From positions 1 through 38,467 of IMG/VR virus record IMGVR_UViG_2850796239_000007: a DNA stretch of 38,467 nt. One strand, 5' to 3'. Below, one piece after another: positions 11,190-12,009 of this stretch. A program made the position numbers and the translations under genes. This DNA is from a virus. Its lineage: Duplodnaviria > Heunggongvirae > Uroviricota > Caudoviricetes. The notes under the pieces were generated by a model. That model was not told where the DNA came from. It made no database searches and saw nothing but the letters and a program-made list of their open reading frames with translations. How positions within the stretch are numbered: position 1 is the first letter of the stretch; every line of letters starts with the position of its first letter.

Positions 11190-11740
11190 TTTACCCAATA
11201 AATACAGGCAAAAGCGGGGAACACCTTCGTCTCACCACGCTGGAAAGTGTCTGGATTCAGGGAAAACTGCGCATGTGGGGGCGCTGGTCGTATATTGGCG
11301 GCGGTAAGACGGGGAATATGTTCAACCAGTTGTTGGCCTCTAAAAAGCTGACAAAAACGGCAATTAACGAGGCGCTCCGGAGGATGAAAAAAGCAGGTCT
11401 GGACAAACCTGAACTTGAGGCTTTTTTGCGGGATATGATCAACGGCAAGCAAAAAAGCTGGCTGGTGCATTGTACTGATGCAGAGGCGTTATGCATTGAT
11501 CGGGTGATTAGTGAAGTGCTGGCAGAACACCCAAGATTGATTTGTATCCTCCGGCAACGATATGAAGGGAGGGGGATGACTAAGCGAAAAATGGCTGAAT
11601 TGCTGAATGATTCACACCCTGAGTGGTGTTACGCCACGTGCCGTAATCGCATAGATGCGTGGTTGAAAATGGCAGAGTTTATGCTCTATCTGCCGATGCG
11701 TGATGCATTCTCTTCCGGGGATTTAAAAACTGTCTGTTGA
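11186..11740 (+). CDS. putative late antiterminator Q
   Basis: 184 aa from ATG 11186 overlapping ybcO-like stop (ATGA); positioned immediately upstream of a strong promoter plus terminator; assignment by synteny, family not verified. Confidence 0.45.
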   Translation: MIYPINTGKSGEHLRLTTLESVWIQGKLRMWGRWSYIGGGKTGNMFNQLLASKKLTKTAINEALRRMKKAGLDKPELEAFLRDMINGKQKSWLVHCTDAEALCIDRVISEVLAEHPRLICILRQRYEGRGMTKRKMAELLNDSHPEWCYATCRNRIDAWLKMAEFMLYLPMRDAFSSGDLKTVC

Positions 11741-11772
11741 CTCAATCTGTTATCCGGGGCTATATTCCTCAC

Positions 11773-11848
11773 GCGCCAGCAAAATCTGGCGTCGGGATTG
11801 GCGTCCCGGATATCGAAACGGTGCATAACCGCGCTGGCGGTTTTTTTA
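11773..11848 (+). ncRNA. candidate short terminated RNA (c4/IsrK-like) or PR'-tR' late leader RNA
   Basis: promoter TTGACT-18-TATATT (11737..11766) overlapping Q stop; hairpins 11779..11796 and 11793..11808; terminator AACCGCGCTGGCGGTT + U7 (11826..11848). Confidence 0.45.
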
Positions 11849-12009
11849 TGCGCTAAGCACAGTCACATTCGCGATTTATGGTGGGCTGTGTGGGGGAGTT
11901 GAGAGACTCGCCGGATGTTTCGACCGGTTACGCCAACCCTGCACAGTTCACCACCCAGCGATTGGCGTCGCAGGTGGTGAGTTAAAAACCATCGAAACGC
12001 GAGGTCGTT
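11849..12009 (+). promoter_or_regulatory. structured leader of ORF6N gene 2
   Basis: GNRA hairpin GAGTT-GAGA-GACTC 11896..11909; ACGCCAAC 11930..11937; hairpin TCACCACC/GGTGGTGA 11948..11980; SD GAGGT. Confidence 0.5.

Follow-up and report, generated by a model that had tools for sequence, protein, structure and literature searches.

Organization of the cassette at 11737-12567

The region from 11737 to 12567 of a 38,467-nucleotide (nt) stretch of viral DNA (Caudoviricetes; IMG/VR record IMGVR_UViG_2850796239_000007, positions 1 to 38,467; hereafter the window) contains a sigma-70 promoter, a predicted short terminated RNA of the IsrK type, an antisense RNA element of the C4 type with nearby pairing sites, and a gene for an antirepressor-like protein. 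All of these parts lie on the plus strand, and together they very probably form a self-contained c4/IsrK-type RNA control cassette for the antirepressor-like gene. The cassette is referred to here as module C, and two further copies in the window as modules B and A. The switch to which it belongs is already known from the c4 region of phage P1 and from IsrK of Salmonella. Module C is an intact, regular member of this partly characterised family, ordinary rather than new in kind, with its own version of the pairing address called b below.

The whole window was scanned with the Rfam covariance models at their curated gathering scores. Three families matched module C on the plus strand, with E-values from 1e-11 to 1e-17. 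The isrK family (RF01394) matched 11773-11847 with 77.8 bits (gathering score 50, E = 3.7e-17, model positions 1-77 of 77), c4-a1b1 (RF03163) matched 11760-11812 with 52.9 bits (gathering score 46.7), and C4 (RF01695) matched 11874-11958 with 68.7 bits (gathering score 45, E = 1.8e-13, model positions 1-87 of 87).

The cassette follows a Q-like gene (11186-11740, plus strand), which encodes a DUF1133 protein with a weak Phage_antitermQ match and the PHROG annotation 'anti-termination protein Q-like'. The promoter P-isrK (11737-11766, plus strand) is composed of TTGACT (11737-11742), an 18-nt spacer and TATATT (11761-11766), and agrees with the sigma-70 consensus at 10 of 12 positions. An earlier note on this DNA, made from the sequence alone, had described a strong sigma-70 promoter overlapping the stop of the putative Q gene, and the stop codon TGA (11738-11740) indeed lies inside the -35 hexamer. 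Two promoter-like sites were found within 11400-12800, P-isrK among them, and no second one lies between P-isrK and the antirepressor-like gene in that interval; the antisense RNA and its target are predicted to be made together from this one promoter. P-isrK is nearly identical in module B and in the Salmonella prophage Gifsy-1 and is similar to the P1 promoters P1c4/P51b. Transcription would start at about 11773, which is 7 nt past the -10 hexamer and the first position of the isrK match.

The IsrK-type short RNA (11773-11847, plus strand, 75 nt) consists of two hairpins, a linker and an intrinsic terminator, and its predicted length agrees with the two-hairpin terminated RNA of about 75 nt in the earlier note, which had placed the terminator at 11826-11848. 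According to the predicted fold, hairpin 1 (11773-11792) has the loop CAAAAU and hairpin 2 (11793-11808) has the loop AUUGGCGU (11797-11804). The hairpin 2 loop contains the site a1, UUGGCGU (11798-11804), which corresponds to the a1 site annotated for P1 in NC_005856 and is complementary to the segment a' of the C4 element. A second site, b1, UCGAAAC (11813-11819), lies in the single-stranded linker and is complementary to the C4 loop b'. The terminator (11827-11847) is formed by the stem AACCGC GCUG GCGGUU (11827-11842) followed by U7 and corresponds to the final stem in the isrK model of Rfam.

The C4-type antisense RNA element (11874-11958, plus strand) contains a long closing stem, a GNRA (GAGA) hairpin at 11896-11909, identified from sequence and fold, and a second hairpin at 11910-11928. 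The loop of hairpin 2, AUGUUUCGA (11915-11923), constitutes b', a hypervariable specificity determinant that holds GUUUCGA from 11917. The segment a', ACGCCAA (11930-11936), is single-stranded and lies 3' of hairpin 2. Further downstream on the same strand, the site a2, UUGGCGU (11962-11968), occupies the loop of an alternative hairpin (overall about 11947-11981) with the stem CACCACC (11949-11955)/GGUGGUG (11973-11979), and this stem covaries in modules B and A. The site b2, UCGAAAC (11992-11998), is located 2 nt ahead of the Shine-Dalgarno sequence GAGG (12001-12004). Pairing of a' with a2 gives 7 bp, and pairing of b' with b2 gives 7 bp plus one G-U pair. The cassette thus holds two independent triplets of sites, the second being UCGAAAC at 11813 and 11992 with GUUUCGA at 11917.

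The C4 part folds much better than shuffled sequences do (z = -4.0), and both RNAfold and RNAalifold return the family fold. Compensatory double changes were found in 13 of 27 C4 pairs by RNAalifold in an alignment of 22 sequences (21 variants and the P1 C4). The presence in the leader of both an antisense and a sense 7-mer of the short-RNA loop was reproduced in 13 of 20,000 dinucleotide shuffles. C4 has its targets in the sites close to the ribosome-binding site (RBS), which the short RNA is best regarded as mimicking. The earlier note had described a structured leader with a GNRA hairpin at 11896-11909 and an RBS-proximal hairpin carrying a sense copy of the loop sequence. Both hairpins are present, but what the note took for a structured leader is in fact a C4-type antisense RNA directed at the RBS-proximal sites. 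Similarly, the complementarity between the loop and ACGCCAA and the sense copy were borne out, whereas the second set, b1/b'/b2, had been overlooked.

The gene controlled by these elements (12010-12567, plus strand, start codon at 12010) encodes a protein of 185 amino acids with an ORF6N domain (Pfam ORF6N, 5.6e-20). The protein falls in PHROG 2379 'anti-repressor' (1e-90) and shows 52% identity to AnrP of Gifsy-1 (E = 4e-60); by family, the product is predicted to be antirepressor-like, as the earlier note had supposed. Each part of module C, including the promoter, the terminator, both triplets, the Shine-Dalgarno sequence and the open reading frame, is intact and matched to the others. All elements listed in the earlier note were recovered within 1 nt of the positions given there. 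Its interpretation as a c4/IsrK-like module, for which a covariance-model search against the C4 and IsrK families had been suggested, is upheld by the isrK, c4-a1b1 and C4 matches above gathering scores, by the layout shared with P1 immI and the Gifsy-1 isrK locus, and by the relationship of the protein to AnrP.

Comparison with P1 immI, the Gifsy-1 isrK locus and other systems

The immI operon of phages P1 and P7 comprises c4, icd and ant1/2. In the P1 record (NC_005856), the immI region contains, in order, P2c4, P1c4, a1, b1, the C4 RNA (77 nt), a2, b2, icd and ant, and C4 represses the translation of icd/ant. In P1, the partner of the b sites is the loop of C4 hairpin 2, and that of the a sites is the single-stranded stretch 3' of this hairpin. 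The order of parts in P1 matches that of module C: a promoter comes first, then a hairpin with a CAAAxU loop, a1 in the loop of a hairpin, b1, C4 with its b' loop and single-stranded a', and finally a2 and b2, the latter at the Shine-Dalgarno sequence. P1 even has a hairpin resembling a terminator between b1 and c4. The P1 C4 RNA can be aligned with the family and has the same fold, and an antirepressor is the regulated output in P1 too. The Rfam scores of P1 are 68.8 bits for C4, 51.0 for c4-a1b1 and 35.1 for isrK, the last of which misses the gathering score (50). Site b2 of P1 overlaps the Shine-Dalgarno sequence of icd. The two systems differ in several respects. P1 has two promoters, one of them under a C1 operator, whereas module C has one promoter and no operator was recognised there (none was searched for). 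P1 controls ant through the small gene icd, whereas in module C the ORF6N gene follows directly. The antirepressors belong to different families (Ant in P1, ORF6N in module C), and the a and b sequences of P1 differ from those of module C.

The Gifsy-1 locus contains antQ, isrK, orf45/STnc1160, anrP and isrJ, in this order (Hershko-Shalev et al. 2016, PMC4825925). Its Rfam scores are 79.3 bits for isrK, 48.1 for c4-a1b1 and 69.0 for C4, and the C4 match coincides with the published orf45/STnc1160 region. In both this locus and module C, the genes follow a Q-type gene directly and in the same order; the promoters are nearly identical, the terminator occupies the same position and the a1/a'/a2 sets (UUGGCGU/ACGCCAA) are identical. 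Gifsy-1 and the window also both have a short terminated RNA element 3' of the antirepressor gene. The b' loop is UCGGUGAU in Gifsy-1 and AUGUUUCGA in module C. At the Gifsy-1 locus (NC_010392, 33406-34329, minus strand), the loop UCGGUGAU is complementary to AUCACCG in AAUCACCGGAGGG, which lies on the anrP Shine-Dalgarno sequence. The published Gifsy-1 model involves an orf45 peptide and neither a C4 RNA nor the pairing of b' with the Shine-Dalgarno sequence (PMC4825925).

The experiments on Gifsy-1 bear directly on the sites described here. Short IsrK supplied in trans raised anrP translation 139-fold, the IsrK a1-loop mutants G28A and G31A lost activity, and the a' mutants C159U and C162U were derepressed (PMC4825925). 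Double mutants supported the pairs G28-C162 and G31-C159 (PMC4825925). Since G28/G31 lie in the a1 loop and C159/C162 in a', the complementarity between the loop and ACGCCAA in the earlier note, which is the a1:a' pairing, has been experimentally verified in the Salmonella homologue by the compensatory mutants G28A/C162U and G31A/C159U. AnrP induces Gifsy-1 and antQ expression, and STnc1160 is a stable processed RNA from the orf45 region (PMC4825925). The IsrK paper likens the system to CI/seqA/seqC of phage P4; P1 c4, Rfam and RNase P are unmentioned in it (PMC4825925). IsrK and c4 are listed as separate RNAs in a 2025 review, and a study of APSE phages annotated isrK and C4 side by side and drew no connection between them.

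Three other phage systems show partial likeness to module C. The lambda 6S RNA and StxS (PMC7547250) are, like the short RNA of module C, short constitutive terminated RNAs next to a Q gene, but they arise from the promoter at which Q loads and have no C4 partner. The P4 CI RNA is a processed antisense RNA from an untranslated leader with complementary sites (seqA/seqC) on both sides, as in module C, but acts by premature transcription termination of replication genes and not by blocking an RBS. CI belongs to a different RNA family, and no Rfam match to CI was obtained in the scans of the window. In phage P22, the small antisense RNA sar limits ant translation from the opposite strand across the ant RBS; neither in structure nor in sequence is sar related to C4 or IsrK. 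The sar RNA is listed in the references of PMC12197685.

Covariation of the pairing sites

Relatives of module C were gathered from viral contigs by a pattern in which four a' positions were left free. The pattern search gave many chance matches, and an nhmmer filter with a profile of the window modules removed about 44 of 120 loci. Among 53 unique viral-contig modules, 25 distinct b' loops were found. The mean longest Watson-Crick run of b' was 7.1 nt with its own b1 and 8.4 nt with its own b2, compared with 4.3 +/- 0.9 nt with the sites of other modules. The module's own site was the best or tied-best match for 21 of the 25 loops at b1 and for 23 of the 25 at b2. In the relatives, b2 lies at a constant distance from C4 and mostly overlaps the GGAG/GAGG of the downstream gene.

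The a sites vary less. Five a' variants were present among 89 modules, with a sixth in P1, and an exact complement of the 7-nt a' occurred both upstream and downstream in 88 of the 89. Variants of a and b are combined in a mosaic fashion; one viral contig carries the b set of module C with a different a set, and the module C b address was found again in a few viral contigs. This three-way covariation indicates that selection acts on pairing inside the locus. The three copies of each site change in concert.

Proposed mechanism of control

A mechanism consistent with the observed family membership, architecture, three-way covariation and position of b2 at the Shine-Dalgarno sequence can be proposed. 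The sigma-70 promoter would start a transcript at about 11773, and the majority of transcripts would end at the intrinsic terminator, giving the 75-nt IsrK-type RNA with a1 and b1. The read-through RNA would carry C4, followed by a2, b2 and the ORF6N RBS. C4 is probably excised from this transcript, as in P1. The single-stranded a' and the loop b' of C4 would then pair with a2 and b2, so that the RBS is occluded and the antirepressor is left untranslated. The short RNA, bearing the same two sites, would compete for C4 as a target mimic, and a surplus of it would turn translation on. The module C copy is presumably expressed, and C4 processing in it is proposed by analogy with P1. The RBS block by C4 is inferred from the P1 precedent, the position of b2 and the covariation, and an activating role of the short RNA is suggested by the Salmonella trans-activation data together with the three-way covariation. 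The short RNA may act as a decoy rather than through refolding of the mRNA alone. As read off the sequences, a GGG 5' of a1 can pair with a CCC 3' of a'; both are conserved, and a2 lacks this extension, which would favour the short RNA as a competitor over a2.

Several points weigh against this interpretation. The prophage is riddled with insertion sequences and may be transcriptionally silent. Site b2 of module C stops 2 nt short of the Shine-Dalgarno sequence instead of overlapping it, and each pairing duplex is only 7-8 bp long. The IsrK part alone is thermodynamically unremarkable against shuffles (z = -1.8). The 5' release of C4 by RNase P as an RNA of about 77 nt is known for P1 only. 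Mutations of the a1 loop in cis raised basal translation in Salmonella from 4 to 93 or 218 units (PMC4825925). This effect is not predicted by a pure decoy model and points to an extra cis role of the a1:a' pairing, which probably also matters, for example in folding or processing.

A candidate late promoter downstream of the cassette

The relatives of the Q-like gene were compared with respect to the sequence that follows them. The module is absent from 41 of 77 close Q relatives with enough flanking sequence. In all 41 module-less relatives, another conserved element has its start inside the Q match, 3-6 nt from the end. In this element, TTGATT and TTCAAT are separated by 17 nt and followed by a hairpin and a strong terminator. 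Of the 36 relatives that carry the module, 34 have the same element 3' of the module and the associated gene, 822-878 nt past Q in 32 of them and further in two. The corresponding PR'-like element of the window (12575-12686, plus strand) is located just past the ORF6N stop and contains TTGCAA (12575-12580), 17 nt, TTCAAT (12598-12603), a hairpin and a terminator (12664-12686). Its predicted RNA folds at z = -5.7, and its -10 hexamer deviates from the usual A at position 2. A relaxed Rfam scan of 12540-12780 returned no family, isrJ included, and similar sequence was found in 6 phage records only.

The element at 12575-12686 is likely to be a Q-dependent late promoter with a short terminated RNA. 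If Q acts at this promoter of its own, the module together with its gene most plausibly represents a cassette, about 830 nt long, that has been inserted between the Q gene and the late promoter of Q. In Gifsy-1, IsrJ (100.3 bits) lies directly 3' of anrP, and its promoter overlaps the anrP stop, which is the expected place of an AntQ late-promoter RNA.

Alternative explanations

The earlier note had offered a second interpretation, in which the promoter at 11737 is a Q-dependent PR' and the 75-nt RNA is the product of a tR' terminator, comparable to lambda 6S/StxS, with Q allowing read-through to the late genes. The location of the promoter directly after the Q-like gene and upstream of the tRNA genes and the lysis cassette fits this proposal, as does the arrangement of a constitutive-looking promoter and a terminator at 11737-11847, and Sy et al. 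(2020, PMC7547250) attributed IsrK of Gifsy-1 to a promoter regulated by antitermination. However, modules A and B have the same architecture and no adjoining Q gene, P1 has the module and no Q, a DUF1133 gene lies within 1.2 kb upstream in none of 49 viral-contig modules, and the module is missing from the 41 Q relatives described above. Q proteins are promoter-specific (lambda, 21, 82). The same P-isrK promoter nevertheless follows dissimilar Q proteins (E = 0.44 between the DUF1133 protein of the window and AntQ of Gifsy-1), whereas the element after the antirepressor gene changes with the type of Q, being IsrJ in Gifsy-1 and the PR'-like element in the window. A Q-dependent origin of the short RNA is accordingly highly improbable, and this part of the earlier note is not sustained. 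The sequence CAAAAT (+8 to +13), a -10-like motif in the loop of hairpin 1, was considered as a sigma-70 pause element for Q and dropped; it is kept in the Q-less P1 (CAAATT) and in Q-less modules. It is also improbable that module C is an inert remnant of a decaying prophage, or that its short RNA serves mainly as an Hfq-dependent small RNA (sRNA) acting in trans on host mRNAs. At least four insertion sequences are present in the prophage and its early region is largely missing, IsrK is named an Hfq-binding RNA in Rfam, and prophage sRNAs have often been co-opted for host regulation (PMC7547250). Decay is at odds with module C being fully intact and self-matched, which also holds for modules A and B, and the three-way covariation points to selection on pairing within the locus.

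The published Salmonella model, transferred to module C, would make 11878-11985 a peptide gene equivalent to orf45, with a cis a1:a' fold opened by IsrK and coupled translation of the downstream gene, and without a free antisense RNA on the RBS. Mutants of the orf45 start and stop codons lower activation, 30S binding and structure data have been reported, and a1 mutations derepress in cis (PMC4825925). The ATG at 11878, which is the conserved AUGG of C4, opens a frame of 35 codons that ends 24 nt before the ORF6N start. This frame is not preceded by a Shine-Dalgarno-like sequence, and its variable sites are distributed 8/9/8 over the codon positions, that is, with no coding signature. Its stop lies anywhere from codon 15 to beyond codon 68 in the relatives, where the frame is often in frame with the main gene. 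The region is instead a genuine C4 RNA with compensatory stem changes, and a stable processed RNA, STnc1160, comes from the same region in Salmonella (PMC4825925). Because the mutations made in orf45 lie within the closing stem of C4, their effect may be one on RNA structure. Moreover, the peptide model leaves b2 without a role, although b2 covaries with b' and sits on the Shine-Dalgarno sequence, Gifsy-1 included. The frame at 11878-11985 is therefore probably not a gene, and control of module C through such a peptide is considered unlikely. In modules B and A, the orf45-equivalent frame runs in phase into the main gene.

A possible common device for P1 c4 and IsrK, and its significance

A wider proposal, put forward tentatively and with slightly less than an even chance of being correct, is that IsrK and P1 c4 are one device. 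The orf45/STnc1160 RNA would be a C4 RNA acting directly on the RBS through b':b2, and IsrK would correspond to the a1/b1 region of P1, set free as a terminated target mimic that titrates C4. Specificity would reside in a two-part mosaic address, with no fewer than 6 variants for a and 25 for b, and the late-promoter RNA of Gifsy-1 would be IsrJ rather than IsrK. If this is true, several cassettes, such as the three in the window, could operate in parallel, overlapping only partly where they have the a address in common, as modules B and C do.

The main gain at this locus is the correct annotation of an unannotated RNA-controlled antirepressor cassette. The cassette is abundant in Stx-converting phages, in which antirepressors influence induction and toxin release. 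The comparison ties together two literatures, that on P1 c4 (since 1990) and that on Salmonella IsrK (since 2016). It offers a testable function for the a1/b1 sites, calls the 'orf45' peptide into question and tells the cassette's own promoter apart from the Q-dependent late promoter. The modules also provide naturally occurring RNA address pairs that are mutually orthogonal and might serve as design parts. The suggested unity of IsrK and c4, the equation of orf45 with C4, the two-part address code and the late promoter past the cassette are of specialist interest, and all of them need experiments.

Other modules and prophage context

Module B (7622-8446, plus strand) has a promoter composed of TTGACG (7622-7627) and TATATT (7646-7651). 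Its RNA matches on the same strand are c4-a1b1 at 7645-7697, isrK at 7658-7734 (75.1 bits) and C4 at 7762-7846 (77.6 bits), and its gene (7898-8446, plus strand) encodes an ORF6N antirepressor-like protein. The a set of module B is the same as that of module C (UUGGCGU/ACGCCAA), whereas b differs, with the loop UUUCCGUAC and the sites UACGGA and GUACGGA, the latter on the Shine-Dalgarno sequence. An upstream Q gene is absent, and insertion sequence (IS) copies lie on either side at about 6163-7007 and 8676-9520. These copies belong to the IS4/IS5 family and have opposite orientations.

Module A (4775-5600, minus strand) contains isrK at 5490-5566 (64.8 bits), C4 at 5378-5465 (79.0 bits) and a gene for a Rha-family regulator at 4775-5323 (minus strand). 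Its address differs from those of modules B and C in both parts, with a being UUGCUAC/GUAGCAA and the b' loop GUUCCGUGAUGA. Three cassettes with three addresses are thus present within 7 kb of one prophage. Cross-talk between the three modules was also estimated with RNAduplex, but the energies were not discriminating, since stem flanks rich in G+C pair with other partners as well; C4 of module C, for example, scored equally against IsrK of B and of C.

The window represents a lambdoid prophage next to yebY and the sRNA pair RyeA/SdsR. Among complete Escherichia coli genomes, none exceeds 98.6% identity to the chromosomal flank. The module C region is at most 93% identical to E. coli genomes, in which the three flanking genes are annotated and no RNA gene is (RefSeq). 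Modules 70-88% identical to this region occur in 264 phage records, most of them of Stx-converting phages, and lie upstream of 'antirepressor' genes there. The sRNAs SraC/RyeA (minus strand) and SdsR/RyeB (plus strand) are located at the left window edge (463-607), and a phage integrase gene (735-1811, minus strand) marks the prophage end beside yebY. The antitoxin RNA RalA was detected at 2169-2347 (207 bits) and may be compared with that of the RalR/RalA toxin-antitoxin pair of the rac prophage.

Other insertion sequences include an IS3-family element (2748-3904) and an IS110-family element (13784-14980), the latter between the tRNA genes and the holin gene, and the patterns of open reading frames at 23483-24712 and about 27966-28780 suggest more IS copies. 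The usual early region, with the repressor and replication genes, is missing from the prophage in the window. A Hok/Gef-family toxin gene (9529-9789) is located upstream of the DUF1367-YbcO-Q block. Four tRNA genes (12775-13085, plus strand) are situated downstream of the PR'-like element and ahead of the lysis genes; their anticodons are CAT, TCT (Arg), TGT (Thr) and TCC (Gly), and they have a promoter-like site of their own at 12736-12765. The CAT tRNA was assigned to Met by ARAGORN and is given as Ile in RefSeq for the related E. coli locus. A TrkH-family potassium transporter gene (16511-17986), flanked by the lysis gene Rz and the gene for the small terminase, represents cargo in the late region and is reminiscent of trkG in the rac prophage.

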